64,000 nucleotides of DNA from Roseibacillus sp. (GTDB taxonomy: Bacteria > Verrucomicrobiota > Verrucomicrobiia > Verrucomicrobiales > Akkermansiaceae). The stretch spans positions 1 through 64,000 of the forward strand of contig CBDEUM010000018.1 in assembly GCA_965242925.1 (NCBI GenBank). The letters are read 5' to 3'. Below are positions 30,903 through 64,000 of the stretch, piece by piece. Under the pieces are notes generated by a model. It saw only the letters and a list, made by a program, of their open reading frames with translations, made no database searches and was not told the origin of the DNA. The first letter of the stretch is position 1, and each line of letters opens with the position of its first letter. The position numbers and the translations under genes are program-made.

Positions 30903-31074
30903 ATCGGTGGCAGATGCCCCTGGGGCGGTATTTTAAGGTCCTTCTGTCCGGGCGGGAAGATCTCCCCGCCCGATTTGCGAGAGGGGGAGACGCCGGGATC
31001 TGCCAACCGGCAACGCTCTCCCGATATTTGGCTCTTCGAATTCCGGGGCAATATGAGAGAAACTCCCGGTAAGG

Positions 31075-47500: not shown

Positions 47501-48010
47501 GGCGAAGAATTCGTTCCGGGTGATATTTTGCAGGGTCTGGATGCCTCGGAGGGCATCAGCAAGGAATTTGTTCCATGAGAGTTCCTCCTGCTTGAGGACC
47601 GAGGGAAACTCCCGGGCCCTGGCCTTGCCTTCCTGCTGGTGGCTAAACTGCAGCTTCAGCTCGCGCCGGATATGTTCCAGCGAGTTCTTTGGATCGCGAG
47701 GATAATTGATGAGGGCTTCGCGGTTGAGAATGAGGTTGCGCAGGCTGGATTTCGGAAAGCGCTTGTGCCACTGGGCAAGGATGTCAGCGAGTTCCTTGTC
47801 CTGCCTGGTATTCTGATAGTGAAGGGCATGGAAGTAGTAGTAGTCCTCGGTTCCCGGGATGAGTTGCTTGAGCGCTTCCCCGCGGTCGTCGGCAAGGGCA
47901 AATTTCTCGATGAAGCCGATCTCCTGCTGAGCGCAGATCCAGGGAATGAGGGTCGCCAGAATGGCAGAGGCAAGCATGACAGGGTGGGTGAATCGGGATG
48001 CTTTGTTCAT
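41591..48010 (-). CDS. Giant (2139 aa) secreted hypothetical protein with macroglobulin-domain-like segments
   Basis: 6.4-kb uninterrupted ORF with host-like codon usage and a signal peptide; see findings for motifs. Confidence 0.85.
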   Translation of the reverse strand: MNKASRFTHPVMLASAILATLIPWICAQQEIGFIEKFALADDRGEALKQLIPGTEDYYYFHALHYQNTRQDKELADILAQWHKRFPKSSLRNLILNREALINYPRDPKNSLEHIRRELKLQFSHQQEGKARAREFPSVLKQEELSWNKFLADALRGIQTLQNITRNEFFALLTSGHALTGAQRRDLLSRADNPDLPGLIALILEDLKSKESRGFGEFNIHRALTIAQLDELRGGRKDLLLNANYVHTYLAKLRPGADANPAASPEVRKAYLERAWKFVSRLGPSFNSLKAHLLYQRLVFDHSQGAHDANRFMTYVKLPRRVPYVHPDWARKESELWRHPANLGQNFRNVTGLAPIGTDEPVVRNYLLHFLRESGDYKAYAPYFRESWLKAVFAETKIVNGIGDPERWASLLSPSQFQALKDRVDIEFDPSNPEHFGVSDNVSLRVHLKNVQTLIVKVFEVNTLNYYLKHGTEVSTDLALDGLVTNHERTFDYKEAPQRRVPRDFEFPEIEDRRGVWIVEFIGGSKSSRAVIRKGRLDVLSATSSGGEVITILDETRKPAPGVAVWFGGRRYECDEKGRTLIPFSNEPGTRTPVIEAPDGFASLAHFQHSSESYQLHAGIRLDREALRPGAKATIMVRPTLTVAGQPISLTRLEKVRLVLVSTDLDGISTTSTVSDFKIASDREATHEIRVPNRLSSLNIRLVAAVKVASQGQKEIELSADQAFTINGQLRSDRIRDLFLSRVNGKYTVQLLGRSGEPGLGQHLYVTIRRPNFKNTRSFTLKTDKSGGVELGALDGVASITARTADNHQRVWQLPRARRTNPGLIHAVAGESIHIPYAGTLTREELALHAISPAGITSDAFKALSLKDGFLVADNLEPGDYRLLLKKSSQSITLRVARGTVANGHVFNSARTLELVDRDPSHLTKLSVDGKSLEINVANTDKATRVHIIATRFLPDFDLFGFLGHAPRGGLFSGTPGHLPNLYVSGRKIGDEFRYVLERRYARKLPGNMLERPEIILNPWAVRDTEAEEETLTKGEDYDRALTGQAAKAARASSPSARKQAGEEVPTGSAVDFLVNGPVSLLNLQPDEKGHLSIDLDAFGDRQHVHVLVLDHQGASYGELSLPERATEIADLRLRQALDPDRHFTEQDSVTLLKKGERLEIKDLRTARLEVFENLSSAYRYLLAVREDATLRQFEFILNWPDLKEEEKRTRYSQFACHELNFFLWKKDPRFFAEVIAPYLANKRDQTFVDKFLLGSKLNPYLEPFEYERLNSLERILLAHRSEDRLESTQWDFRDRLALHPPDLTRSNMLFNGALATGGLTFSDLNAARDKANGWFGRVTDAISAPASPPVASAPGAGGGFTDGKSRGRSLRRSLESNALSLDEAEGAVTESAVEEMKKLGAVQDKRQAKAKEGREKAELQQKDFVGKEDAFDAYASDSDLDASTVEALYRAVETTREWAETNYYRLPIGSHTHDLIAESRFWLDYVRHEKGKAFGSRHLGEAARNIHETLLALAVLDLPFDSPESSMDIDGPKLVFTAADSAIAFHREIKEAGLADNRPPLLVSQAYFRHGDRHRIENGEQVDKFVSDEFVTSVAYGAQVVVTNPTSTRQKLDVLLQIPQGAMPVLGHRATGTRKISLDPYTTQRLEHFFYFPAAGDYPCYPAHVSKSGAVIAHAEKFTFKVVSEPSRVDESSWAHISQWGTGEQVLTYLSKMNLHNINLLQVAWRCRESGDFFRKALEILHRRGKYHRELYSYGLFHNHMPIARQFLLVDGRYLNNCGDYLASELVTIDPVARRAYEHLEYKPLVNNRAHVVGGTRKILNGRIRNQYQSFLRILSQKPTLDHADQLSTTYYLFLQDRAAEAMDRLDTVNAEALPTSIQYDYFRAYSAFYRAQPDEARAIAVKYTQHPVDRWRERFVNVIAQADEIQGKGPQIATEEDRNQQQAKLAAAEPSLDLRVDGSLVTIDYQRVTNVQVNYYEMDLEFLFSTNPFVSSSSGSFSVVRPNKSERLQLADNNRSHNFELPREYQSKNVLVEVIGGGKKRSLAVYSNELNTAVSERYGILTVRHAGDNRPLPATYVKVYALTSSGPQFYKDGYTDLRGKFDYASVSTSDIGDVLKFSVLVMSDRNGATVLEAPVPQR

Positions 48011-50774: not shown

Positions 50775-51641
50775 ATGCCGAATCCCTGGACTGGAAAAGG
50801 AAATCCCTATACGCGGGAAGAAGTGATCGAACGGTTGCAGGACAGCCTGGGCCGTGGAGAACCGATCATCGCGGCAGGAGCCGGCACGGGAATCAGTGCC
50901 AAGTTCATTGAGAAGGGTGGGGCTGACCTCATCATCATCTATAATTCCGGGCGCTTCCGCATGGCGGGGCACGGTTCCACCGCGGGCCTCATGGCCTACG
51001 GCGACGCCAATGCCGTGGCGATGGAAATCGGGGAGTTTGAAGTTCTTCCCGTGGTGGAGGAGATCCCGGTCATCTGCGGAGTGCACGGGAGCGATCCGCG
51101 GCGGCGCATGTGGCATTTTCTCGGGCAGGTCAGGGACATGGGTTTCAGTGGAGTGAACAATTTTCCCACCCACTCTATTGTGGATGGAAAGTTCCGGCAG
51201 ATTCTGGAGGAGACCGGCATGAGTGTGCAGAAGGAGGTTGATATGGTCGGGCTGGCACGCCGCATGGACCTCTTCTCCATCGTTTACGTCGGATCGCCGG
51301 AGGAGGCCCGGGAGATGGCGGAGGTGGGCGCTGATGCCATCATCGCCCACGTGGGAACCACCATCGGGGGGTCGGTCGGGGTGGTGGATGCCACCATGAC
51401 GATTGAGGAGGCAGCGGTCCGCACGCAGGAGATCATCGAGGCCGGGAAGTCGGTCCGCGACGATGTGATCTACCTCAGCCATGGGGGGCCCATTTCTACG
51501 CCGGAGGATGCGGCCTACATCAATGAGCACACTGATGCGGTGGGTTTTGTGGGAGCTTCCAGTCTGGAACGCATGGCGGTGGAGGAGTCTCTCACCAACC
51601 TCACACGCGAATTCAAGTCCATCCCGGTCAGGCGGAAGTAA
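50775..51641 (+). CDS. TIM-barrel signal transduction / PEP-hydrolase-like protein (Tm-1 C-terminal-domain homolog)
   Basis: IIAAGAGTGISAKF.E.GGADLIIIYNSGRFRMAG.GS.AGL.AYGDAN, GVNNFPT, HGGPI, GASSLER. Confidence 0.9.
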   Translation: MPNPWTGKGNPYTREEVIERLQDSLGRGEPIIAAGAGTGISAKFIEKGGADLIIIYNSGRFRMAGHGSTAGLMAYGDANAVAMEIGEFEVLPVVEEIPVICGVHGSDPRRRMWHFLGQVRDMGFSGVNNFPTHSIVDGKFRQILEETGMSVQKEVDMVGLARRMDLFSIVYVGSPEEAREMAEVGADAIIAHVGTTIGGSVGVVDATMTIEEAAVRTQEIIEAGKSVRDDVIYLSHGGPISTPEDAAYINEHTDAVGFVGASSLERMAVEESLTNLTREFKSIPVRRK

Positions 51642-51643
51642 CG

Positions 51644-52864
51644 ATGTCCACCATCGCGGTTCTCGGAACCCTCGACTCCAAGGGGGCGGAGCATGCCTTT
51701 GTGGCGGAGCAGATCCGTGCCCGCGGACACGATGTGGTCCTCATTGACGTAGGCACCGGCGGTGAACCTGAAGTAAGCCCGGCGATCACCCGTTTCGAGG
51801 TGGCTGCTGCCGGGGGCATCGATCTTCAGCCGATTCTCGACCGGCGCGACCGAGGCGAATGCGTGGGAGCGATGGCACAGGCGGTGCCCGTGCTCATGGC
51901 TCAACTGGTGGAGCAGGGCAGGATTGAGGGAGTGATCTCGCTGGGGGGCGGAGGAGGCACGGCCATCGCAACCGCGGCCATGCGGGTTCTCCCGGTGGGA
52001 TTCCCCAAGCTCATGGTCTCCACCCTGGCGAGCGGCAACACGGCTCACTATGTGGGCATCCGGGATATCGTCATGATGCCCAGTATCGTGGACGTCTCGG
52101 GGCTGAACCCGGTTTCACGCACCATCTTCACGCGGGCGGCAGGGGCCATCTGCGGAATGGTGGACAGCGAGGTGGACGTCAGTGACTCAAGGCCGATCGT
52201 AGCGGCCAGCATGTTCGGCAATACCACCGATCTCGTTTCGATGGCACGTGTGCAGCTGGAGGCAGCGGGCTACGAAGTGCTGGTCTTCCACGCCACCGGG
52301 ACGGGTGGCAAAACGATGGAAGCTCTCATCGAGAGTGGGATGGTGGCCGGGGTGCTGGACGTGACCACCACCGAGTGGGCTGACGAGCTGGTCGGCGGGG
52401 TGCTGACGGCCGGTCCGGATCGCCTTGATGCCATGAGCAGGGCGGCGGTGCCCGCAGTCATCGCACCCGGGTGTCTCGACATGGTGAATTTTGGAGAGCG
52501 CGATACGGTGCCGCAGGAATTCGAGGGTCGTGCCATTTATGAGCACAACCCGCAGGTGACCCTGGTGCGTACCAGCGCGGAAGAGTGTGTCGAGCTCGGC
52601 AGGATCCTGGCGCGGAAAGCCAACGCCAACGGGGCTCCGACCGGCATCCTCATCCCTACCAGGGCGATCAGCATGATAAGTGCTGCCGGGCAGGCTTTTC
52701 ATGATCCCGTGGCGGACGCGGCACTTTTCAGCGCGATCCGGGAAGAAGCCGAGGTGGGGGTGCAGGAGCTGGCGGTTGAGATCAACAGTGAGGAATTCGC
52801 CAAGGCCTGTGCAGAGAAACTGCTTGAGCTGATGGGCGGGGACGGATCGCCCTCTTCAGCTTGA
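51644..52864 (+). CDS. UPF0261 / Tm-1-like ATP-binding domain protein
   Basis: GTLDSKG.E, LGGGGGT, LPVGFPKLMVST, SMFGNTT, VFHATGTGG..ME, DVTTTE, DMVNFG, HNP.VTL.RT. Confidence 0.92.
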   Translation: MSTIAVLGTLDSKGAEHAFVAEQIRARGHDVVLIDVGTGGEPEVSPAITRFEVAAAGGIDLQPILDRRDRGECVGAMAQAVPVLMAQLVEQGRIEGVISLGGGGGTAIATAAMRVLPVGFPKLMVSTLASGNTAHYVGIRDIVMMPSIVDVSGLNPVSRTIFTRAAGAICGMVDSEVDVSDSRPIVAASMFGNTTDLVSMARVQLEAAGYEVLVFHATGTGGKTMEALIESGMVAGVLDVTTTEWADELVGGVLTAGPDRLDAMSRAAVPAVIAPGCLDMVNFGERDTVPQEFEGRAIYEHNPQVTLVRTSAEECVELGRILARKANANGAPTGILIPTRAISMISAAGQAFHDPVADAALFSAIREEAEVGVQELAVEINSEEFAKACAEKLLELMGGDGSPSSA

Positions 52865-52930: not shown

Positions 52931-54673
52931 TTATTCATCTTCCGCTCCGCCCAGGGTCACGTTGATATTGTATTTGTTCTGAAGGTGGGCGTGGGCCCGG
53001 GCTGCCTGCTTGCTTTTCGGGTAGCGTCTGCAGGTGAGCTGGAAAGTGCGGATGGCGTTCTTGGCCTCCTTGGCTTCCTCGTAGGTGTAGGCGATTTCAA
53101 GGGTGGCCCTCGGAGCTGAGGCATCGTTGACCAGGCATTGCCTGTAGAGAGCGACAGCCTCCTTGTGCTCTCCGATCCTGCGATGGCAGATCGCCATGGC
53201 GAAGTGGGTTTTGGGGAAATCGTCGATCTGGCGGTACATCCCGATAGCCTTCTTCCACTCCGACATGCTTTCGTAGCAGCCGCCGATGGACCACTGGTAG
53301 CCCGGGGCGTTCTTGCCGTTGAGATCGATGAGCTTGACGAACACGGCGATGGCCTCGTTGAACTTGCTCATTCCCTGGTAAATCTGCGCGATCGTCTCCA
53401 GGTAACCGACCTCGTTGTCGCTGTTGAGAGCGATCAGCCGATGAAGCACCTTGATGGCCTCGGCTGGCTGCTTCACGGATTGGAGCATGGTGGCCAGTGC
53501 CTCGAGTCCCGCCACCCTGTTGTCGTACTCTTCGTAAAGCCGCCGGGCATTCTTGATGTTCTCCCGGCTCATGTGCCACTGGGCCATGCGCCCGCGGAGG
53601 TCGTCATTCCGTCCAAATTTCTCCTCTACCTCCTCGTAGATGGTCCAGATTTTGTTTGGACGGCCCAGCGTTCCGTGCAGGCCGGCGATACGGTAGAGAT
53701 GACTCCTGGCATTCTGGGAATCTTCAATGGAGTCCCGACGCACCTGAGCGATGAGCTGGTCGCCGAGTTTGAGGGCGGACCGCCTCGTCTTATCCTCCTT
53801 GAGGAGGTGGTTCATGGTCTTGACCGTCATGTCGAAGACCACCTGGATGAGTTTCTCGTCCTTGTAGCTGGTGGCCAGGGCCTTCCTGCCGGCAGCGAAG
53901 TCCTGGGCGAAGAAATACATGGTGGCGAGTTCCTGGCAGGACTGGACACAGGCGCTGGTGCTCCACTCCGTGCGTTTCATCACGTAGGTCAGGCCCTTCA
54001 GGATCTCGAGAATCCCGTCGCCGTTCTGGTGCAAGCGGGCGTAATGAAGGAGGTCGAGCGAGGAGCGCAGGGAGAGCGGAGTATCCGGGTATTCCTTGAG
54101 GACGAATTGGAAGGCGTTCTTTGCTTTTTTGACTTCTCCCATCTTCCGGTAGGCGTCGCCAATGCAGTAAGCCGCCACATTGGCAGAATGTGATTCGGGC
54201 CAGTAGTCGATGACCGACTGGAACCCTTCCCGCAGGGCGGTCTTGACCTTCTTGAGATGGATCTGGGTGTGGCTCCACATGAGTTGGGCGTAGGGAGCGC
54301 CGGGGCTCTTCTCGTAGAGGGTGAGGAACTTTTCATACTCCGCCAGGGCGACCTTGTAGTTCTTGCTGGTGTAGTACTTTTCGGCGATCTTGAGCTGGTA
54401 GCGTTCAACCTCCCGCATTTTTTCGAAGACGGGGAGGGGGATCTGCTCGAGGTCCGAGAGTGCATTGGCGGAGAGGGGGAAGAAGGCGAGCAGCAGCCCT
54501 GCCAGCGGTGCAAGCGTGGGGCCGCGATCCCGGGCCGGAGGGCGGGAGACCGTGGCAGGAAGCCAGCTCCGAAGGTGATCCGACCTGCGCTTCTTTGTGG
54601 GACGGGGGTTGTTCCCGTCCCTGCTTTCCGGCTCCCTTCCGGAGCTCAGTCTTCCTTGGTTGCCTCGAGCCAT
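52931..54673 (-). CDS. Exported TPR protein (BamD/CpoB-like repeats)
   Basis: A..[EY]..F...Y..S..A..A repeats along its length; signal-like LAGLLLAFFPLSANA. Start uncertain (ATG 54673 or TTG 54513). Confidence 0.85.
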   Translation of the reverse strand: MARGNQGRLSSGREPESRDGNNPRPTKKRRSDHLRSWLPATVSRPPARDRGPTLAPLAGLLLAFFPLSANALSDLEQIPLPVFEKMREVERYQLKIAEKYYTSKNYKVALAEYEKFLTLYEKSPGAPYAQLMWSHTQIHLKKVKTALREGFQSVIDYWPESHSANVAAYCIGDAYRKMGEVKKAKNAFQFVLKEYPDTPLSLRSSLDLLHYARLHQNGDGILEILKGLTYVMKRTEWSTSACVQSCQELATMYFFAQDFAAGRKALATSYKDEKLIQVVFDMTVKTMNHLLKEDKTRRSALKLGDQLIAQVRRDSIEDSQNARSHLYRIAGLHGTLGRPNKIWTIYEEVEEKFGRNDDLRGRMAQWHMSRENIKNARRLYEEYDNRVAGLEALATMLQSVKQPAEAIKVLHRLIALNSDNEVGYLETIAQIYQGMSKFNEAIAVFVKLIDLNGKNAPGYQWSIGGCYESMSEWKKAIGMYRQIDDFPKTHFAMAICHRRIGEHKEAVALYRQCLVNDASAPRATLEIAYTYEEAKEAKNAIRTFQLTCRRYPKSKQAARAHAHLQNKYNINVTLGGAEDE

Positions 54674-56067
54674 TTGTTGTATTCCGCGTGAGCGTAGAAG
54701 ATGATGTTCACTCCGAGCTGGAAGCAGGATTCCCAGATCTCGCGGGCTACCCCGGAGTGTCCGTCGGCCCAGGCATCGCCAATGTCGCCGGGATGGTAGT
54801 AGGTCACCAGACGACCATCAACCACCCAGCCAAGGGCATCGGTGCGACCATGCTTGGCGACATAGGGGAGCTTGGGCAGGGGGTAGGGGATCTGGTGGAT
54901 CTGGTGGTCAAGGTAGACCGTTATGGGTTCCACCCTGGGCAGAATCTTCTTCATCATGCCGACGAACTGACCTTCCCAGCCGCTGCTTCCCCCGTTGTCA
55001 CCGAAGAGCATGCCGTGCTTGTCGAGGAGATAGGAGCGCAGGATTTTGATCCCTTCCTCTCCCATCTGAATCTTCTGCTGGCCGGTCATGTAGACCATGG
55101 GAGGACTCTTGCGGGCCGGGAAGGCACGGAGGCGCTTGATATCCATGGGTTCGGGCCGGTCGCTGACGCGGTGCCCGGTGCGCACGCCATACTCGGTGAG
55201 CAGGTTAAGATCCGCTCCGCGGTCCATATCCTGTTGCCAGTCCCCCCCGTTGTACTTGAGACGGATGAAGCGCACCTTGCCGCGGGAAGTGCCTCCCGAG
55301 AATCCTGCACCCCGGCCTTCTCCCTGGCCCACCTTGTAGCGGTGAGCGGTTTCTTCGAGGAGCTGCAACCTGACATCGTCGATGGGGGGAGGATTGAAGA
55401 GGACGCTGCTGTAGGGGTTGATGATGTACTTCTTCTTGACCACCTTCTGAATCCTGACGACCTGTTTCAGACGTTCTTCCTCTCCGCCGCCGTAGGGCGA
55501 TTCGTAAATGGCGCAACCGGTCATGCTGTTGAAAATGAGGAAGGTGACGAGAAAGAGGGCGCTGTAGGCGCCCAGAGTGGCGGTGGACTGCCAGAGCTTG
55601 GGATTGCGGCGGCCAAAGTACCAGGCCCATCGGCGGAGCGGGTTCCAGGTGCGCTGTGGGTGGGGCGAGGGAGCCAGTTGCTTGGTTTTGCGGTCGACCG
55701 CCCAGACCACCCAGCACAGTCCGATGAAAAAGGAGATGGCTGCTCCGGCGCGGGAGAAGGCGTCCGAGAGCCGGTAGGCTGAGAAGACGAGAGGAACGAC
55801 CAAGGTAAACTGCCAGAGCGGGAGGAAGCCCACACTGAGAATGCCGCGGTAGAGGAGCGGCGAACGGCGACGCCAGTAACGGGCCCAGGAGAGGGGCACG
55901 GCGAGAGCCAGTCCGAATCCAATGGCGTGATTGAGGGGTGCAAGGTGGAAAAACAGGTGGGCGTCGGCCCAGAGGACGAGCCAGAGAACGGAGGCGTAGA
56001 CGGTAAGCGCGACCGGCTTTCGGCAATGGCGCAGAAACCAAGGCCCCACCTGTTTCCAGCAATTCAT
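54646..56067 (-). CDS. Polytopic membrane protein with C-terminal DUF4159 domain
   Basis: About 5-6 N-terminal TM segments; RLKYNGGDW, PMVYMTG, LRSYL..GMLFGDNG, GDIGDAW, FQLGVNIIFYA. Confidence 0.85.
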   Translation of the reverse strand: MNCWKQVGPWFLRHCRKPVALTVYASVLWLVLWADAHLFFHLAPLNHAIGFGLALAVPLSWARYWRRRSPLLYRGILSVGFLPLWQFTLVVPLVFSAYRLSDAFSRAGAAISFFIGLCWVVWAVDRKTKQLAPSPHPQRTWNPLRRWAWYFGRRNPKLWQSTATLGAYSALFLVTFLIFNSMTGCAIYESPYGGGEEERLKQVVRIQKVVKKKYIINPYSSVLFNPPPIDDVRLQLLEETAHRYKVGQGEGRGAGFSGGTSRGKVRFIRLKYNGGDWQQDMDRGADLNLLTEYGVRTGHRVSDRPEPMDIKRLRAFPARKSPPMVYMTGQQKIQMGEEGIKILRSYLLDKHGMLFGDNGGSSGWEGQFVGMMKKILPRVEPITVYLDHQIHQIPYPLPKLPYVAKHGRTDALGWVVDGRLVTYYHPGDIGDAWADGHSGVAREIWESCFQLGVNIIFYAHAEYNKWLEATKED

Positions 56068-56564
56068 TCGAGTCCGTCGAGGAAATTGTCCCTCTTGTTC
56101 TCCAGCGGATTCTTGTTGGGAGAGGCCTGCTTTTCCTCTGTTACGCCGAGGTTGGACAGGTTCGGTGCGGTCGGAGCGAGGGGATTGGCTTCCTGATCGG
56201 GGGGAGAAGGAGCGGTTGGGTCGGACGCTGGCCTGGGAATGGCCGGTTCCGCGGCGGAGGGTTGGCCGGATTTTCCGGAGGGTGCTTTCTCCCGGGGTTT
56301 GCCGGCGCCTATCGCAAAGGGGATGGCTGTAAGGAGCAATCCACCCGCGAGGACGATCATGGTGGAGATGCAGATGGCGCGGAAGAGCTGACTGGCTGCA
56401 ACGATGCCGAGCATCTCCTGCGGAGATCTGTCCTGGAGTTGTTTGAGAAAGCTCTTTAGCTCTGCTACGGTAGCGTTGCTGCTACTCCGAAGGTTGCGTA
56501 ACTCGCTCTTCGGGTTCGCCATGGGTTGAGGCGGATCTTCGCTGCTCTCGGGCTGGATTTTCAT
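56064..56564 (-). CDS. Hypothetical single-TM protein with Pro-rich linker
   Basis: ATGA overlaps with both neighbours; helix, TM, Pro/Ala/Ser-rich tract, short C-terminal motif. Confidence 0.8.
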   Translation of the reverse strand: MKIQPESSEDPPQPMANPKSELRNLRSSSNATVAELKSFLKQLQDRSPQEMLGIVAASQLFRAICISTMIVLAGGLLLTAIPFAIGAGKPREKAPSGKSGQPSAAEPAIPRPASDPTAPSPPDQEANPLAPTAPNLSNLGVTEEKQASPNKNPLENKRDNFLDGLE

Positions 56565-56974
56565 GACTCGGGTTCCGGTTCTGGTTCAAGAATGTGGACG
56601 AGGTCGCCACCGGCTTCCCCGATGGCTTGAATGACGGGTTCAAAGTGTCGGGCCTGCGCTTCCCGGTGGACTTTCAGGAAGACGTTGCGCTGTCCGGCGG
56701 GAGTCTTCCCGAGGATGGCGTTGAGGCGGGGACCGAGCAGCTCGTTCTTGATCTCTTCGCCATTGAGGTAGGTCTTGTAGGCGCTGTCGATGGCCACATT
56801 GGCGAGGGTGGCGCCGGCCCCTTCCAGATCGGAGAGAATGGCGGGGTCCCATTGCACGTGGCTGTCGTCCTGCACGCGGGCCAGGATGACGAAGAATATC
56901 AGAAGCAGAAAGCCGATGTCGCCCATCGCGAAGGAGGGAACAGTGGCGGCCATCTTTCGGCGTGCGATCTTCAT
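56561..56974 (-). CDS. exbD: Biopolymer transport ExbD/TolR family protein
   Basis: PSFAMGDIGFLLLIFFVI TM with the conserved Asp; periplasmic VAID...YLNG...VFLKVH. Confidence 0.88.
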   Translation of the reverse strand: MKIARRKMAATVPSFAMGDIGFLLLIFFVILARVQDDSHVQWDPAILSDLEGAGATLANVAIDSAYKTYLNGEEIKNELLGPRLNAILGKTPAGQRNVFLKVHREAQARHFEPVIQAIGEAGGDLVHILEPEPEPES

Positions 56975-57072
56975 CTACTCAACAGGTGAGATCCATCCGC
57001 GCCTGTTGGTGGCACTGCCGTGATTGCGGAAGGCGGCGGAGTCGCGGGGATGGGTTGTGGCTGGATTCTCAT
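56971..57072 (-). CDS. Candidate 33-aa Pro-rich small ORF bridging the two exbD genes
   Basis: ATG 1 nt after the stop of the upstream exbD; its TGA overlaps the next ATG (ATGA). MRIQPQPIPATPPPSAITAVPPTGADGSHLLSR. Confidence 0.35.
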   Translation of the reverse strand: MRIQPQPIPATPPPSAITAVPPTGADGSHLLSR

Positions 57073-57073
57073 T

Positions 57074-57496
57074 TCAATCCACGGTAATGGTTCGTTCGCT
57101 CTCCAGTTCGAGGGTGATCACTCCGCCCGCATCATCGATGACCTGCGAGACCCGGATCCAGTGGTCGTAGGGCGTTTTCGGAGCGCTCTTTACGACCACT
57201 ACCTTGTCTTCAGGGCGCTTCTTGGCCTGCAGGGCGGCGGCGAGACGGCGGCGGAACTCGTCCAGATTGAGAGGACTGCCGTTGAGCACGATGCTGGTGG
57301 GGGTGATGGAGACCTCAAGGTTCCTGCTCTGCTGCTTGCTGTCCTGCTTTTCCTCGGTGCGTGGCAGGGTCTGGGCCATTCCGGTTTCAGGTTGCACGGA
57401 GGCACAGACCAGGAAGAAGATGATGAGAATGAAGGCGATGTCCGAACTGGACGCAGCCGGAGGATCAACCAGGAGCTGACGACGGGGGAGCTTCAC
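57074..57496 (-). CDS. exbD: Biopolymer transport ExbD/TolR family protein
   Basis: PAASSSDIAFILIIFFLV TM with the conserved Asp; LP motif; VVVKS...TPY..W..V...I..AGG. GTG start overlaps the exbB stop (GTGA). Confidence 0.88.
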   Translation of the reverse strand: MKLPRRQLLVDPPAASSSDIAFILIIFFLVCASVQPETGMAQTLPRTEEKQDSKQQSRNLEVSITPTSIVLNGSPLNLDEFRRRLAAALQAKKRPEDKVVVVKSAPKTPYDHWIRVSQVIDDAGGVITLELESERTITVD

Positions 57497-58257
57497 TGTT
57501 CCTTGTTCAGGGTCAGATGGAGGCTGACCACTTCGATGAGTTCCGCTGCGGAAGACTCCACCTGCAGGACGAAGTCGTTGATGATTCCGGTGAAGTAGTT
57601 GAAGGCCATGTAGGCGGGGATTCCCACACACAGTCCGAAGGCGGTGGTGAGGAGAGCTACCCGGATTCCCGCCGCAGCAGCCTGCACGATGTTCTGCTGA
57701 CCCACGTTGGCCTCGATGTCGCCGAAGGCCACGATCATTCCCTGCACGGTGCCGAGGAAGCCCAGCATGGGCGCCACACTGGCAATGGTGGCCAGCAGGG
57801 GAAGGTGTCGCTCAAGGGCGGCCACGATATGCACCCCGGAGTTCTCCATGCTTTTTATGACCTGTTCCTCAAGCTGGGCCTGGTCATATTTCAGGCGGCG
57901 CAGGACGAGATACTTGCGCAGGCCACTGGAGAGGACGGCGGGAACCGGACCCTGTGATCTGTCACAGAGGCTGAGTGATTCCTCAACCCTGTCCTCGGAG
58001 AGCAGGGTGGTCACTTCCTCGCGCAAGCTGCTGGAATCGACTTCCAGCAGCTTGAGACTGCGATAGCGCTCGATCACGACTGCAAGGACCAGGATGAGAA
58101 GGATGAGGATGGGCCACATGAAGATTCCCCCTTCCAGGAAGATGCCGATCGCACCGCTGCTGAAGAAGTCCCGGAAAAACTCCATGGCCTTGTTCAGTGC
58201 CCCGGTGGTTTCCTCGGAGGCGGCAGATTGGGCAAGCAGGGGGGGGAGGTATGGCAT
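57493..58257 (-). CDS. exbB: MotA/TolQ/ExbB proton channel family protein
   Basis: GG.FMWPI..L..VIER, IASVAPMLGFLGTV.GMI.AF, GI.VALLTTAFGL.VGIPA..FNYF. Confidence 0.92.
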   Translation of the reverse strand: MPYLPPLLAQSAASEETTGALNKAMEFFRDFFSSGAIGIFLEGGIFMWPILILLILVLAVVIERYRSLKLLEVDSSSLREEVTTLLSEDRVEESLSLCDRSQGPVPAVLSSGLRKYLVLRRLKYDQAQLEEQVIKSMENSGVHIVAALERHLPLLATIASVAPMLGFLGTVQGMIVAFGDIEANVGQQNIVQAAAAGIRVALLTTAFGLCVGIPAYMAFNYFTGIINDFVLQVESSAAELIEVVSLHLTLNKEQ

Positions 58258-58268
58258 GGGGGTATGGG

Positions 58269-61200
58269 TTATTCGTCGTCCAGGTTCGCTTCGCGTTCAA
58301 ACTGGGCCAGCATCTCGGGCAGGGCAAGACGTCCGCGGGCATACTTGGCAGCGTCGGACTCGGGAAAGTCCCAGCGACAGAGGTTGTAACGCCGGAAGGC
58401 GTTGGGAACGTCGTTGTCCATGCGGTAGCTTTCCCCTGCCCAGAAGAGTGCCTGGGCGGTGAGTTCCTCTTCCGGGAAGCGCTTGACGAACTCGTCGAAG
58501 GCGGTTCCCGCCTTCTCATAGGACTCGTCCTTGTAGTGGCACTGGCCGATCCGGAACCCCATCTTGGGCGTCCATTCGTGGTTGGGGAACTTCTCCAGGA
58601 ATTTCACTCCCACGCTGGCAGCCACCGGGTAGTCCTCCTTGTTGTAGAAGTGCTCGTTGATGCGGAGCATGACATTGGCGATGAGGGGGCTCTTTGGATA
58701 AGTGGCAGCCAGAGTGACGTAGGACTCAAGCGCCTCGTCCAGTTGAGCAGCCTGTTCGTAGCACTGGCCGAGCTTGTACTGGGCGTCCGGAGCCAGCTTG
58801 TGTTCGGGATATCCCCGGACGATGGACTTATAGGCCGCGATGGCTTCATCCCATTCCTTCAACTCCTGTGCAAACTGTCCCAGAAGGTAGGCAATACGTG
58901 GCGCATATCTTGGATGAGGGTAGTCTTCCTTCACCTCGCGCAGGACCCGTCGTCCCAGGCTCAGATTGGCCAGGGCCTCTTCTTCCTGCTCCAGTTTGAG
59001 GTGGCTCTTGAAGAGTTCAAAGTAGCTCTCCGCAATGTGGAACTGGGTCTGGATGGCGAGATCCTCATTCTTGTAGACCTTGCTGAAGGCGGACATGATG
59101 CCGTCCGTTCCTACTGCGACGGGAAGGCCCACCGTAATGATGGGCTCACCCTCGGCCGTGTGGATCACGTTGTCGAGATAGCCCACCGTGAGGGCGTCAC
59201 CGAAAAAGCACTCCACCTCACCCTGTGAGTTGCCGGGGGCAGGCTGGGTCGAGGACTTGAGAGGGAAAGAGCCGCTGAAGATCCCGCTATGACTGAGAGT
59301 CTCTTCCACTTCAAGGGTTTCGTCCTCCCCCGACCCGGTCTTGACCCGGATCAGGGCCTTGTCCCGTTCGCCCGAGATGTCGAGGTCGGGGTCCTTGAGC
59401 CAGAGGTAGATCTTCTTGCCCAAATAGGCAATCTCGGCGTCTTCCTGGTATTCCTCGTCGGTAAGGCGGAGAGTGGCGGCGGTGGCGAGTTCGGCGTGGG
59501 CGGCTCGTTCTACGGCCTCGCCGGAGGGTCGGCGCTCGTCCTGATAGCGGGTTACGAACCTGTCCTGGCCGTTCACATTGAGGACGAGGAGACCAGGTTC
59601 CCGCTCTGGACCTCCATCCAGGAGATCCCCCTCCGCTGCGGGTGGCGGCAGGACGCGCCCCAGTCCGGGGCGTGCGATCGTGCCGTCCGCAGGGACGGAG
59701 GCCGCGCTGTTGAGATCGCCCAGGAGCAGGGGGACCTGCCCCACGAACCGTCCTTCCCAGAGGGCAGCATTTCCGACCTGGTCAACTTCCTCGGTGGCCG
59801 GGGCAAACCCGCGGGAGAGGACGCATTCCACCTTCACGCGGGAACCCTGCGTGGTTTCCACTTCCACGGTCACCGTACTCTGGGAGTCCTTGGCCTGGTC
59901 CGGGTCGATGACTTCCACGGTGAGAGGCAGATAATAGTCGATCTTACTTACATGGTCGGTGGGACGGGTTGCCGCCACCGGGACAAAGGTGCGTTCACCC
60001 TCCACAGCCTTCACGCTGTCAACGATCTGCAGGATCGCCTCCGTCGGCTCGTTGAGAAGGACCACCGCCTCGCGGTAGGAAGCGTGACCGGGGAAGGTGT
60101 TCTGCTCGTCCTTGTAGCGAAGGTAGATCTTGTCACCCTGTTTCACCACCAGCTTTTCGCCGTCGGGCTGGGCAGCAGTATCGATTTCGGCCACGAAGAT
60201 CCCGGTGGAAGTCCCGGTTTCAGTAGCGGTCAGGGAGCGGCGTGTATTGGCATTGACCTGGACCTGCACTTCGACGGAGTCCTTTCCGCTGGTGGTGTCC
60301 AGGTCGTAGTCGACCACTTCAGCCACGATGCGCTCGCCAGGCTCGATCCGCAGGAGTTCCTTGCGCGCCCCCCTCACCGATCCGTCTCCACCGCGAATGA
60401 AGTTGTAACTGATAGGCGTGATTCCGCCGTTGTGGTAGGTGGCGGTCAGGCGGGCGGTGAGCAGCTTGTTGCGCTGGGCGCCCCCCGCGGTGATCTCGTC
60501 GAGGTAGGAAACCTCCACCGTGTCACCGGGGGCCAGCTCAAGAATGTCATTCCCGGCCAACTGGAGGACATCCTGCTCCGGTGGCACGTGCAGGGTTGCT
60601 CCACCCCTTACCTCGATGTGATTGACGGCGACGGCTTCCCCCCGGTACTCGAGAATTTGATATTCAAGAAAGCGCATCTCGTGGGAGGGAAGGGACAGTC
60701 TCCAGACATTCTCCTGCTGGGTGATGAGGCCTTCGAGCGGTCCCTCGATCCGGGGGAAGTCCGCGGCCCGGCTCAGGTCGAAGTCCTGTTCATTAAAATT
60801 ACGGAGGGTTACGCTGGCAGTCTGGGCATTGTCCCGGGCCCGGGTGGCGCTTCCCGCTTCCCCTCCGGCCGAGACGATGGAGACCACGGTAATGGTGTGT
60901 ACTCCCGCCCTGGCGTAGATATCCGCTTCCCGGCCACCCTCCCCCATGGGCAATTCAAGGCGGCCATCGATCATGAGACCGGTGTGTTGACCGGTCACCG
61001 AGAAACGCATCCCACCTTCCCTCTCCTGAAAGAACCTGCCGGACCAGACGAGGAAGAACGCGTCCTCACCCTCTCCCGGTGGTGACCAGGAGAGCCGCGT
61101 GACGTTTTCCTCAAGGTCAGGGTTGATCTTCTCGACGAGGCTTACGATATCTTTCCAGGCGTAGCTTTGGAGCAACTTGCTCTTCTGGGTCTTGTAGAGG

Positions 61201-63998
61201 CGCATGGTCATTTCCCCCTCTCCGAAGGTGATGGGAGTATTCCGCTCCGGGGTTGGAAAGCGGGCCAGGGTGTACCAGAAGCGTCCGTCGTGGCTTCCGC
61301 GAAGGTGCAGGCGCACGGGAGCCTCCCTTTCGGCATCCGGGGACATGAGGGAGATAGTGTCGACCTCCCGAAGTTCCTTCAGATCGATGGACAGTGTCTT
61401 GGGGGCTGCGCCGTCGGGTTCACTACGCCATGCAGTGTCCTTGCTGTGGTCGATGGCCATCAGCGCGCTGTGGTCGAGGGCGGAGTCACTGGCCCGTGCC
61501 CCGGCGGGAAGTTCCCCGGTGGGCACGGTGCCGCTGAAGATGCCACCGTGCTGGCTTTCTTCCGGGATTTTCGTCTCTACCTGGTCGCCGCTGGAGGCTT
61601 TTAGAACGATGGGCACTCCATCCGGTTCCCTGGTCAGGTCGCGGTCGCCATCCTTCACCTGTGTATAAATGAGATTGCCGGGTTTGATCTGGTCGCGGGG
61701 ACGCTGATGGGCCTTGCCCTGGTCCTCAGCGACCTCCTGGTCCTTTCGTTGCAGGGCTTCCGTGAAGGATTCGTTCTCCTCGTCGAGGATCGCACTGCTG
61801 GCTACGGCGAGGCTGCCGTCGGAGGCCACCTTGAGGCGGGTGGCACTCAGGAATTCGAACTGGAACTCCTTCTTGAACTCGGCCGGATAGTCGACCGTAA
61901 TGGTGTCTCCGCCGGTAACCTCAAGGGTTCCGCTCTCAACCTGGGCCACTCCCAGAGCGGTGGGGAGATCGGACAGGAAGATGCCCTTTCCAGCGCCGCC
62001 GCTGACGAGGAAGGACTTCTCGACATCGCCGCCGGGGTCGGTGCGCACGACCACCGGGATGCGCGTTTCCCCCCGGCTGATCCCGAGATCAGTATCCTGG
62101 ACCACCACCGAAAGGGCCTTCCCCGGAGTGTGCCAGAGCTTCGATTCGCGTCCGAGCCGGCCCACCGTGCGGAGGGTTTCGAGCTGGGTGAGGTAGCGTT
62201 GTTCGATGCCGTAGACCTCAGCCAGGTTGAAGAGAGTTTCGTTGGCGAGTTCAGCGTCCGGAGCGCGTTCGAGGACGGAGAGAAAGATCCTGCGGGCCGC
62301 CACATTGTTTTCCTGCCTGATCTCAAGAACACCAAGCAGGAACTCAGCGCGAATATTGACCTGCGGGTTGGGGTTCTCGGAGAGCTCAAGGAAGATCTCC
62401 CCGGCCTGGTCGTAAACCTTCTGCGCCATGAATGTCTCCCCGATACCGAACCGGGCCTCTACGGCTTCGGGCTGATCCTTGTAGTGATTGAGGACGGAGG
62501 TGAACTCCGCGCGGGCGACATCGTACTGTTGCGAGCGCTGGTAGTTGCGGGCCAGAAGAAGTTGCACGCGGGCCTTGTCCCTGACTTCCACGCTTCCAGA
62601 CTCACCGTTCTTGATAAGCCATCCCCGCAGGATGTCTTCAGCACGCAGGTGATCTGCTTCCGTTCCCTGGCTGATATGGGCCTCCGCCCCGAAGAGGATG
62701 AGTTCGACCGGCAGGTCGGCCTGGTTCTTGTCGAAAAGCTGCCGGTTCCGGTAGTAGGCCTGCTCGGCCAGCTCTTCTTCACCCAGTCGGAGGTGGAGGA
62801 TAATCTGGAGGAGGGGAGCGATGGGGCTGTCTTCCGGAATATCGGCACTGAGGCTGCCCATCTTTCCGTAGGCCTTGCGCAGGAGTGCGCGTGCGTCATT
62901 CAATTCCTTTTCCCCTACCCCGCGAATGATGTGGATCAGGCCGTTGAGAACAGTGGCCCCCATCTGATGATCTCCGCGTGCGATGGCTCCCTGGGCGTAG
63001 GGGTAGATGCGGCGCCAGCTTTCGTGGTGCTGGTTGGAAAAGAGAATGACGCGGTAGGCTTCGCGGAGGCGGGTCATGCCCCTGGGTGCGCTGGCGAGGA
63101 GTTCCAGGGCTGCCTCGGTGCTCACACGTGGCAGGTTGAGGGCGCCGACGATTCGGTAGACCTGGGCCTTCTGGTCGGCATTCCACTCCTTGGAGGCTCG
63201 CGCAGTTTCCAGCCAGCCACGGGCTGGGAGTTCCCCGATGCGACCGGAGCGGAAGGGATGCTTCACCCGCTGCCCGATGGCATTCTTCATGATGAGATCC
63301 ATCCGGGGCAGATCACCGGCCCGGAATGCGAGGTCGGCGAGGGCGTTGGAGTGGGTACCCGGATGGTAGCTGGCGGATGCCTGGCGCAGTTTCAGGAAGG
63401 CGGAGGCCTGGGCGGGTTCCAGCCTGGCTGCTACCCGTTCGGCACAGTTGACGCATTCCTGGTGATCAGGAGCAATGTTCATCCGACCGCGCCACCATGC
63501 GATGGCCTCCTCCTTCATCTCGATTTCCCACATGATGTCACCGATGCGGGTGGTGTGATAGAGCGGATTGGAGCTGAGGGGAGAGGCCTTTGCAATCCAG
63601 GGGAGGGCTTTACGGATAATCATGGGATCGCGCGTGTCGATCAGCCGCTGCCAGGTATTCGGGGTGGTGGCCTGCGGGGGAAAGGTGAGGACATGGCGGG
63701 CGGCGGCGGCCTGCATTTCCTTGGCCTGGTCACTGTAAGTGGCAGCTTCCAGCCACTTCTGGGCTCCTGCGTAGTCCTTGGGGAATTCGGAGCAGAGTTG
63801 ACGGTAATGCTCGGCGGCCTTCTTCTGTGAGGTGCCTCCGAAGTGATGGAGATAGTTGTAGGCGAGTGTGGTGAGGAGGAGGCGGCGCAGCTCCGGAGGC
63901 TGTTTCTGCTGGAGAAGTTGTTTGCAGGCTTGTCCCGACTTTCCGCCGGGTTCCCCGACCTGGACCCACAGGCGAGTGTTGGTTTCATTGCTGAAAGT
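58269..63998 (-). CDS. Giant TPR / Ig-like repeat / discoidin / PA14 protein (5'-truncated by the window edge, at least 1909 aa)
   Basis: Frame stays open for 94 more codons upstream of ATG 63716, up to the window edge; TPR blocks flank five DxDxD...GxF...GD...Y.D repeats. Confidence 0.88.
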   Translation of the reverse strand, partial: TFSNETNTRLWVQVGEPGGKSGQACKQLLQQKQPPELRRLLLTTLAYNYLHHFGGTSQKKAAEHYRQLCSEFPKDYAGAQKWLEAATYSDQAKEMQAAAARHVLTFPPQATTPNTWQRLIDTRDPMIIRKALPWIAKASPLSSNPLYHTTRIGDIMWEIEMKEEAIAWWRGRMNIAPDHQECVNCAERVAARLEPAQASAFLKLRQASASYHPGTHSNALADLAFRAGDLPRMDLIMKNAIGQRVKHPFRSGRIGELPARGWLETARASKEWNADQKAQVYRIVGALNLPRVSTEAALELLASAPRGMTRLREAYRVILFSNQHHESWRRIYPYAQGAIARGDHQMGATVLNGLIHIIRGVGEKELNDARALLRKAYGKMGSLSADIPEDSPIAPLLQIILHLRLGEEELAEQAYYRNRQLFDKNQADLPVELILFGAEAHISQGTEADHLRAEDILRGWLIKNGESGSVEVRDKARVQLLLARNYQRSQQYDVARAEFTSVLNHYKDQPEAVEARFGIGETFMAQKVYDQAGEIFLELSENPNPQVNIRAEFLLGVLEIRQENNVAARRIFLSVLERAPDAELANETLFNLAEVYGIEQRYLTQLETLRTVGRLGRESKLWHTPGKALSVVVQDTDLGISRGETRIPVVVRTDPGGDVEKSFLVSGGAGKGIFLSDLPTALGVAQVESGTLEVTGGDTITVDYPAEFKKEFQFEFLSATRLKVASDGSLAVASSAILDEENESFTEALQRKDQEVAEDQGKAHQRPRDQIKPGNLIYTQVKDGDRDLTREPDGVPIVLKASSGDQVETKIPEESQHGGIFSGTVPTGELPAGARASDSALDHSALMAIDHSKDTAWRSEPDGAAPKTLSIDLKELREVDTISLMSPDAEREAPVRLHLRGSHDGRFWYTLARFPTPERNTPITFGEGEMTMRLYKTQKSKLLQSYAWKDIVSLVEKINPDLEENVTRLSWSPPGEGEDAFFLVWSGRFFQEREGGMRFSVTGQHTGLMIDGRLELPMGEGGREADIYARAGVHTITVVSIVSAGGEAGSATRARDNAQTASVTLRNFNEQDFDLSRAADFPRIEGPLEGLITQQENVWRLSLPSHEMRFLEYQILEYRGEAVAVNHIEVRGGATLHVPPEQDVLQLAGNDILELAPGDTVEVSYLDEITAGGAQRNKLLTARLTATYHNGGITPISYNFIRGGDGSVRGARKELLRIEPGERIVAEVVDYDLDTTSGKDSVEVQVQVNANTRRSLTATETGTSTGIFVAEIDTAAQPDGEKLVVKQGDKIYLRYKDEQNTFPGHASYREAVVLLNEPTEAILQIVDSVKAVEGERTFVPVAATRPTDHVSKIDYYLPLTVEVIDPDQAKDSQSTVTVEVETTQGSRVKVECVLSRGFAPATEEVDQVGNAALWEGRFVGQVPLLLGDLNSAASVPADGTIARPGLGRVLPPPAAEGDLLDGGPEREPGLLVLNVNGQDRFVTRYQDERRPSGEAVERAAHAELATAATLRLTDEEYQEDAEIAYLGKKIYLWLKDPDLDISGERDKALIRVKTGSGEDETLEVEETLSHSGIFSGSFPLKSSTQPAPGNSQGEVECFFGDALTVGYLDNVIHTAEGEPIITVGLPVAVGTDGIMSAFSKVYKNEDLAIQTQFHIAESYFELFKSHLKLEQEEEALANLSLGRRVLREVKEDYPHPRYAPRIAYLLGQFAQELKEWDEAIAAYKSIVRGYPEHKLAPDAQYKLGQCYEQAAQLDEALESYVTLAATYPKSPLIANVMLRINEHFYNKEDYPVAASVGVKFLEKFPNHEWTPKMGFRIGQCHYKDESYEKAGTAFDEFVKRFPEEELTAQALFWAGESYRMDNDVPNAFRRYNLCRWDFPESDAAKYARGRLALPEMLAQFEREANLDDE

Positions 63999-64000
63999 CT

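Follow-up and report, generated by a model that had tools for sequence, protein, structure and literature searches.

By the usual view, a Ton/Tol-type motor requires an arm, TonB or TolA, engaged by a His-Ser contact, and exerts its action on the outer membrane. Cryo-EM structures show His-Ser as the contact between such arms and the motor; in E. coli a His-Ser/Trp contact fastens TonB and TolA in place, with an essential His (PMC12215075). For bacteria of the Planctomycetes-Verrucomicrobia-Chlamydiae (PVC) group, Williams-Jones et al. (2025) predicted loci that encode a tetratricopeptide repeat (TPR) protein, a tolQ-like protein, two tolR-like proteins and an arm that bears the SHLS motif and ends in a vWA head; their function is given there as unknown (PMC12204202). 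Here we describe an operon of ten genes, A to J, from Roseibacillus sp. (GCA_965242925.1), all on the minus strand from position 71454 down to 52931 of contig CBDEUM010000018.1 (C18). The DNA analysed (the window) is the first 64 kb (64,000 nucleotides) of this contig, which runs on, so that the 5' end of the operon can be read. The cassette encodes an ExbB/ExbD motor that is fully conserved across phyla, yet it has neither the His-Ser contact nor an outer-membrane target, and it is very likely a dedicated non-TonB unit. A motor lacking both that contact and that target provides a natural test of coupling, and of other outputs that such motors may power.

Comparison with described systems

The cassette works like the predicted PVC vWA class yet fails two of its defining features, the vWA head and the His. 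In both, a gene for a TPR protein, another resembling tolQ and two different tolR-like genes are followed by a transducer whose head is neither TonB nor TolA, and both are distributed among PVC bacteria. The product of gene I has the transmembrane (TM) helix, disordered linker and globular head of the published arm, while that of H is headless. The head of I, however, is DUF4159, with a fold like that of class-I glutamine amidotransferases (GATases), and not vWA. The form of the cassette found here, type 1, is without the two residues that the published model depends on, the SHLS-type His and the Ser of the motor; most loci of a second form, type 2, have the His. Compared with the published loci (PMC12204202), the cassette is also distinguished by two arms (one headless, one with five helices), three TPR scaffolds (one of 2383 residues) and a DUF1549/1553-DUF1501 pair. 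The initial annotation of this DNA had called the machine a candidate undescribed one; the general layout, with a vWA head, had already been predicted in print, and the cassette is a variant of the proposed class.

With the Ton system the cassette shares the motor families and the catalytic Asp and Thr, but its operon contains no TonB_C domain, receptor or SHLS motif, and it has two different ExbD proteins. The likeness to Tol-Pal consists of a best NCBIfam score that is TolQ-like (below the cut-off), CpoB-like TPRs and, in type-2 H, a TolA-like helical linker, whereas the operon is without TolA domain III, TolB and Pal and is dispensable and rare. The Agl-Glt machinery of Myxococcus likewise joins one pentamer and two dimer subunits to two arms of single-pass type and TPR scaffolds; its outer-membrane barrel complex, its heads with the TonB C-terminal domain and its cytoplasmic platform have no counterpart in the cassette (PMC11761067). 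MoxR AAA+/vWA systems such as NorQD offer an analogy only, that of a motor forcing a client through an adaptor (PMC13036017); the cassette, with a membrane motor and exported parts but no ATPase or vWA domain, is not a member. The PVC modules of Kamneva et al. (2012) set a Tat-type DUF1501 protein beside a PSCyt1/PSCyt2/PSD1 cytochrome, as the cassette does, but they are two- and four-gene modules, ExbD has 0 occurrences in that paper, and the cassette ties one orthologous pair to a proton motor (PMC3542564).

In the literature searched, which leaves most subscription journals outside, no characterised orthologous operon was found, no paper treats DUF4159 with ExbD or DUF1501 with DUF1549, and DUF4159 alone yields only a Pfam clan remark; the supplements of PMC12204202 and PMC3542564 could list such loci.

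Organization and distribution of the cassette

The seven minus-strand ORFs of the initial annotation were recovered at the same positions, as were its junctions, i.e., an 11-nt gap between the giant gene (D) and exbB, GTGA at 57496, and ATGA at 56974, 56564 and 56067. Beyond position 64,000, three further genes, A, B and C, lie upstream of D, together with no tonB, receptor or tolAB-pal. The giant protein is present as described, with the difference that it starts at C18 65420 with a signal peptide and has 2383 residues in place of 1909. Pfam and NCBIfam searches found no tonB, receptor, tolB or pal among the ten operon genes, and Pfam found no outer-membrane barrel or peptidoglycan-binding domain in the ten proteins. 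The reported lack of TonB and receptor thus holds for the operon, but both are encoded on other contigs of the genome. In the orthologues listed, the leaders are of Sec type for A, C, D and J and of Tat type for B. A small ORF of 33 codons between the two exbD genes, also counted initially, is probably no gene: it is not conserved, most orthologous loci have a 4-nt overlap of the two exbD genes instead, and among nine long gaps listed (one masked) an ATG-started frame occurs only in the two closest relatives (L014 and L015).

A survey of species-representative genomes with I as the query yielded 69 loci, which belong to Verrucomicrobiales, Opitutales, Kiritimatiellia and Planctomycetes; individual records carry the label Omnitrophota, Vicinamibacteria or just "Bacterium". 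The nearest named relatives are Akkermansiaceae/Roseibacillus genomes, with 80-96% identity in I. Gene order is conserved across PVC phyla, as the initial annotation had proposed to verify: E-F-G-H-I are in order in 51 of the 69 loci, and D is directly upstream in 49 of these 51. The remaining 18 comprise 15 loci that stop at a contig edge, two remnants (L020 and L078) and one rearranged locus (L080). Gene J follows I in 64/69 loci; L042, L048 and L078 showed no J behind I although DNA was available there, and L026 and L058 end less than 1.5 kb from I. No more than remnants or split genes are left in L020 (whose record bears the title Rubritalea profundi) and in L078, and L089 has a lone type-2 C. 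A rearranged Gemmataceae locus retains all ten genes, with J-I-H facing away from C-D-E-F-G-A-B. The type-2 form, about 30% identical, contains C, D, E, F, G, a gene in the H slot, I and J in varied order. It was detected in 15/300 genomes of the host's own phylum (by C) and in 3/301 of the planctomycete phylum (by ExbB), while type 1 was present in 2/301 planctomycete-phylum genomes and, among 301 sampled from its own phylum, in this genome only.

The cassette has a scattered distribution in Verrucomicrobia and Planctomycetes and is gained or lost as a whole. Eight non-carriers of the same genus have the two flank genes side by side, with no remnant between them, while the same site spans 19-22 kb in four carriers, this genome included; UPF0261, which served as flank marker, was present in 18 of the 20 genomes of this genus. 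The GC content at third codon positions (GC3) is 0.75-0.81 in the cassette and 0.75-0.78 in host genes, a match that speaks for long residence and for loss in relatives with small genomes; the genes on the flanks are metabolic. The empty-site genomes are kin, and the losses may be one event. Close kin that differ in whether this site contains the cassette offer a ready comparison. One genome (G012; 6% contamination), probably a mixture of two strains, carries filled and empty copies of the site in a single bin, on its contigs C71 and C247.

A patchy, all-or-none distribution of this kind would suit an anti-phage system with a Zorya-like motor sensor, and the motor fold is indeed used in defence by ZorAB (PMC12204202). 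PADLOC, however, matched 0 of the 10 proteins, no nuclease or cytoplasmic effector is encoded, and the near-host GC3 and metabolic flanks also speak against defence, which we consider extremely improbable.

A promoter scan of C18 64500-75000 returned 0 sites; terminator-like sites in the same interval number six, fewer than expected by chance, and all are on the other strand. Contigs from three RNA libraries, and from one more run whose kind is unrecorded, span operon and flanks evenly and at low depth; DNA carry-over explains this pattern, and they were used neither as evidence of transcription nor for habitat.

The ExbB/ExbD motor and TonB in the genome

Gene E (57493..58257) encodes the ExbB/TolQ-family pentamer subunit, 254 residues long (PF01618; 97.6 bits, E value 6e-28). 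The two ExbD/TolR subunits are encoded by F (57074..57496; 140 residues, GTG start; PF02472, 65.5 bits, E value 6e-18) and G (56561..56974; 137 residues; PF02472, 38.6 bits, E value 1e-9), and all three products pass the Pfam cut-offs. The motor residues pointed out in the initial annotation are kept, LGTV and LLTT in 48/48 ExbB orthologues and the TM Asp motif in 51/52 sequences of each ExbD; Asp19 is invariant in both F (28/28) and G (28/28). ExbB of this genome shares 58-65% identity with its planctomycete counterparts. Family and catalytic residues mark this as an intact motor; by analogy, five ExbB subunits with ExbD1 and ExbD2 would form a motor of 5:2 stoichiometry. The product of E scores better on the tolQ than on the exbB models of NCBIfam, the tolQ score being below its cut-off.

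In the first TM helix (TM1) of ExbB, the Ser presumed to contact TonB or TolA is found in 0/47 scored type-1 sequences (48 were examined and one was unmatched) and in 16/17 of type 2, where it stands ten residues ahead of a conserved Arg. In a tree of 41 rows, which carried long-branch warnings for the outgroups, type-1 and type-2 ExbB form one clade (100/99), with type 1 on a long stem. In this tree L061 and L079, whose records bear the labels Omnitrophota and Kiritimatiellia, have ExbB sequences that are close sisters, through either mis-binning or transfer.

Genome-wide searches (this genome is 89.9% complete) matched seven ExbB, eight ExbD, one TonB_C, three TonB-dependent receptor barrels and four OmpA-domain proteins, of which the TonB_C, receptor and OmpA matches all lie off C18; TolB_N had no match in the genome at this completeness. 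The sole TonB_C protein, at 30434-31285 (minus strand) of contig C13, is an orphan with no exbBD adjoining, and its TM segment is without His. TonB_C is present in 40/41 relatives, carriers and non-carriers alike, and lies off the cassette contig in 11/11 related and 5/5 distant carriers (16/16). The distribution of the cassette is independent of tonB.

These data bear on another explanation, that an ordinary ExbBD motor with accessory genes serves the orphan TonB and the three receptors in trans. TonB is encoded elsewhere in all carriers tested, as are receptors in the six checked, and the single TonB of this genome is likewise without a TM His and has no exbBD beside it. TonB nevertheless persists in 7/8 empty-site genomes, the genome has six other ExbB paralogues, and seven genes outside the motor are conserved along with it in different phyla, all of which makes service in trans quite improbable.

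Three more exbBD loci of this genome are without TonB (C14 246319-256828, C29 375538-381883 and C42 91788-97781, the last with two exbD genes). Each lies beside long proteins that appear TPR- or repeat-rich by eye, and the genome thus has several TonB-less motors.

The putative arms H and I

We think it likely that the products of H and I are the arms of this motor. They would occupy the TonB slot themselves, a point that the initial annotation missed. The product of H (56064..56564; 166 residues) resembles, in alignments and hydropathy, a single-pass TolA/TonB-like arm without a globular head: conserved cytoplasmic helices precede a TM segment at residues 63-81, a variable Pro/Ala linker and a conserved tail of 25 residues. 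No Pfam or NCBIfam family matches it. The automatic "SecG family" label given to H by the ESM Atlas has no Pfam support and was ignored, and the ESM Atlas returned only PVC clusters of the same families. The product of I (54646..56067) is predicted to contain five membrane helices and a DUF4159 head (residues 266-459, E value 5e-29). In its structural model (pLDDT 78.4) the last helix spans residues 156-182, a disordered linker 184-261 and the head 264-471.

The type-2 sequences link both proteins to TonB. A TM His stands in 14 of 15 aligned sequences of type-2 H, which is headless and continues beyond it with a linker rich in Lys, Glu and Ala, like that of TolA; for type-2 I, 12/17 sequences carry a His in the last helix. 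In type 1 the TM His occurs in 0/55 H sequences, and none is found at the corresponding position of I, where Tyr stands in 60/61. Moreover, the sole type-2 ExbB without the Ser belongs to L085, which is also the sole locus where the His is absent from both H and I. Because of the TM His of type-2 H and I, the ExbB Ser and the co-variation of the two, H and I probably descend from TonB-type arms. Type 1 has probably rewired or lost the canonical His-Ser contact, while its channel residues and very high conservation are kept.

Some observations count against this descent or against TonB-like coupling. The co-loss of His and Ser amounts to about two events (the type-1 stem and L085), not many, the subtypes being two clades. 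With the exception of L125, neither subtype has the partner Trp. The profile match between H and its type-2 counterpart over the TM region (80.5% probability, E value 1.3e-5) spans only 42 columns. The Ser of type-2 ExbB is presumed from its spacing to occupy the position of TolQ Ser28. Type 1 is without the His and Ser that are essential in E. coli Ton/Tol, and its arms may no longer couple as TonB does. Finally, the Gly-Cys185 of I could be a lipoprotein cleavage site, and cleavage there would detach the head from the motor.

Cys185, directly after the last helix, is present in 59/61 sequences and within a lipobox-like L-T/S/A-G-C in type 1. A tether of the Tol-Pal kind might operate on this basis, with I cleaved at Gly-Cys to an outer-membrane lipoprotein, H as the sole arm, and CpoB-like TPRs coordinating invagination. 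The preference of ExbB for the tolQ model, the TPRs of D, which pass the YbgF/CpoB cut-off of NCBIfam, and the lack of a TolB_N match would be in keeping with it. We nonetheless hold such a tether to be improbable, since the cassette is cleanly absent from eight congeners and rare, unlike a core envelope system, Arg or Lys stands at -2 of the Cys in several type-2 sequences, and the type-2 helix has a motor-binding His that would be needless in a cleaved signal.

The head of I matches the DUF4159 structure 4I66 with a Z score of 23.6 and class-I amidotransferase folds with Z about 9.7. Across 61 sequences H425, D431 and W433 are each found in 61/61, and the head has no conserved Cys. The invariant H425 and the near-invariant D357 lie at strand ends and by eye resemble GATase catalytic sites, although hhalign of the DUF4159 head against five GATases of the genome was not significant. 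For vWA there was neither a Pfam match in the head of I nor a chain among the 50 fold-search rows listed. A predicted complex of ExbD1 (33-140), ExbD2 (33-137) and the linker of I (183-250) scored 0.39, 0.01 and 0.02 in three runs (median 0.02) against a mark of 0.32 and is not evidence either way.

Two variants of type 2 were observed. In L084 (10260-11471) a Zn-ribbon-like protein of 404 residues stands in the H slot, recalling GltJ/GltG. I of L095 (4815-7019) has an N-terminal extension that looks FHA-like, again recalling GltJ/GltG. Next to type-2 operons, at 1075-4303 of L084 and 1-2915 of L087, a second ExbB-ExbD module is followed by a squalene-hopene-cyclase-like (alpha/alpha barrel) protein, probably a third type of head.

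The DUF1549/1553-DUF1501 pair

Both genes of this pair lie upstream of the window. A (C18 71454-69007) encodes a PSCyt1-DUF1549-DUF1553 cytochrome c of 815 residues and B (C18 68907-67654) a DUF1501 protein of 417 residues with a twin-arginine-like leader, both assigned by Pfam. The pair, which was outside the view of the initial annotation, is a fixed part of type 1: it stands directly ahead of C in 12/12 type-1 loci fetched and in three more loci. An orthologue of B (at least 69% identity) is found in exactly those 12 of 41 related genomes that have a type-1 C, while other DUF1501 proteins in the 41 genomes reach at most 44% identity among the matches listed. In this genome tblastn gave 82 matches to each of A and B. 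DUF1549/1553-DUF1501 proteins are a large PVC family unexplained since 2012, and one copy tied to an energy source supplies a testable context. A sulfatase-like fold, presumed for DUF1501 but not claimed here, left only a trace in a PDB sequence search (E value 0.49). PSCyt genes have been linked to carbohydrate-binding modules and sulfatases (PMC5615132, PMC3542564).

A further DUF1549/1553 paralogue, 26% identical to A, is encoded in the window at 35632-37446 (tblastn match running from 37446 down to 35632). Between A and the flank gene, C18 71657-74428 (minus strand) encodes a LamG/TSP3-repeat protein, which is absent at the empty site too and is not a constant cassette member.

The exported scaffolds C, D and J

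D (C18 65420-58269, with 58269..64000 in the window) encodes the giant scaffold, 2383 residues with a signal peptide and TPR matches. An N-terminal helical/TPR region is followed by an all-beta middle of about 1020 residues and by C-terminal CpoB-like TPRs. The AlphaFold model of residues 1091-2110 (pLDDT 82.9) is all-beta and, by structure alignment, D carries a carbohydrate-binding-type (CBM32, F5/8-type) fold in this model at residues about 1304-1606 (60603..61511). It aligns with 2v72 with a VIA-align Z of 17.8 (rmsd 2.1, 125 aligned), interrupted by an all-beta insertion; a PF22633 match (E value 3e-5) is under its cut-off. The insertion looks PA14-like. PDB sequence searches with the middle of D, with A and with B gave nothing significant.

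The CBM32 fold and the linkage of PSCyt genes to carbohydrate-binding modules and sulfatases (PMC5615132, PMC3542564) would agree with glycan handling, in which motor and arms would pull on D, whose folds would bind polymers that reached an enlarged periplasm, and would feed these to the A-B redox/enzyme pair. In size, too, the empty-site genomes are at the low end of the genus, with 3.6-4.0 Mb against 4.2-5.5 Mb in carriers more than 85% complete, and a sulfatase/esterase gene and a GH123 gene lie near two type-2 loci. Yet an outer-membrane transporter, a glycoside hydrolase and a sugar regulator are all missing from the operon, the type-2 neighbours scanned are mostly housekeeping genes, the CBM32 fold also occurs in non-lectins (IFT25, DOC domains), and the link with genome size may reflect a single loss event. 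On balance we judge glycan handling unlikely, though it is the most serious of the rivals.

Residues about 1792-2103 of D (59112..60047) form S-layer-like Ig domains. Foldseek ranks 1-4 are the S-layer of Nitrosopumilus maritimus, the best E value being 7e-22 at a TM-score of only 0.17, and VIA-align gives Z 13.2 with 8c8k (rmsd 7.7, 221 aligned). An NCBIfam match to the anammox S-layer (E value 4e-8) is far under the cut-off, and further S-layer-like Ig repeats occur elsewhere in the middle region. These domains could point to a lattice that C and D form through S-layer-type Ig domains and that the motor builds or moves for adhesion or motility. In such an Agl-Glt-like scheme, one ExbB, two ExbD, two TonB-like arms and TPR scaffolds would reproduce the AglRQS-GltG/GltJ-GltD/E layout (PMC11761067), the Zn-ribbon protein of L084 occupies the H slot, and GltJ weakly matches 3/15 type-2 H sequences (E value at least 1e-3). 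Among the ten genes, however, there is no barrel of the GltA/B/H type, adhesin lipoprotein, FHA/GYF platform or TonB C-terminal domain, no sorting signal is seen at the end of D, and Ig folds, matched here at so low a TM-score, are generic. A lattice is quite unlikely, and with no outer-membrane barrel or sorting signal in the operon the adhesin-like character of D and the surface motility suggested initially are unsupported; of the initial proposal, the intact motor, the conserved gene order and the lack of tonB or a receptor in the operon are borne out.

The other two scaffolds are smaller. C (C18 about 67682-65439, beyond the window) encodes an exported TPR-beta-TPR protein of about 747 residues by Pfam, and its residues 264-730 match D with 22% identity (E value 8e-18), C being paralogous to the C-terminal part of D. 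J (52931..54673) encodes an exported TPR protein by its TPR Pfam matches, 580 codons from the first ATG, with a signal-peptide core at residues 54-72 and signal peptides in its orthologues.

Proposed output of the cassette

The reading that we prefer to glycan handling, lattice or tether is remodelling in the periplasm. Granted a non-TonB unit with H and I as its arms, periplasmic remodelling or the loading of a client is, in our view, somewhat favoured as its output. In the proposed mechanism, H, together with the last helix and linker of I, would dock on the motor side in TonB's place, in type 1 through a contact that differs from the canonical one and involves no His. The exported TPR proteins J, C and D would be gripped by I with its DUF4159 head and by H with its conserved tail, and we infer that force would pass to these proteins from the docked arms. 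Cycles of the motor would then pull on or twist a client held by the scaffold, much as MoxR AAA+ proteins act in the cytoplasm through vWA adaptors, though in a compartment without available ATP. In type 1 this client, or a partner, would most likely be the co-inherited DUF1549/1553 cytochrome c-DUF1501 pair, on a scaffold with a carbohydrate-binding fold. The whole proposal, i.e., a self-contained, dispensable, proton-driven machine for mechanical remodelling in the periplasm with the A-B pair as its type-1 client or partner, is tentative.

Free DUF4159 homologues suggest such an output, since they often adjoin MoxR. To remodel a client, a MoxR ATPase works through an adaptor, usually vWA (PMC13036017), and the one other non-TonB head in print is likewise vWA (PMC12204202). 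A survey in which 37 of the 90 ORFs selected were scanned places a free DUF4159 homologue immediately ahead of a MoxR AAA+ gene at 5/13 loci and ahead of DUF58/vWA at one more. At L129, L131, L133, L134 and L138 a conserved run of TPR/peptidase-MA, exported DUF4159 and MoxR genes was noted, with DUF58/vWA and BatA downstream in most.

Several results pull the other way. Seven of the 13 free DUF4159 loci have no MoxR or DUF58 among the neighbours scanned. In type 2 the A-B pair is absent from the eight loci with DNA upstream of J fetched (DNA upstream of D in the D-J-C arrangement was not in the scope of this count), so that the pair cannot serve as client throughout the class. Moreover, A-B-C(-D) and E-J are separated in two genomes.

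At its most specific, we speculate that the cassette is a proton-powered periplasmic remodelling chaperone, an envelope counterpart of MoxR AAA+ proteins, that assembles or activates the DUF1549/1553-DUF1501 haem/metal pair on a giant lectin/S-layer-like scaffold by way of arms without the His-Ser contact; in this full form the idea is doubtful. If true, periplasmic remodelling would be a third kind of output for Ton/Tol-type motors.

Neighbouring genes in the window

Further into the window, 41591-48010 (minus strand) encodes an exported protein of 2139 residues without a Pfam or NCBIfam match, which looks alpha-2-macroglobulin-like. Next to the cassette and convergent with it is a plus-strand gene pair at 50775-52864, which encodes a PEP-hydrolase-like TIM barrel and a UPF0261 protein.

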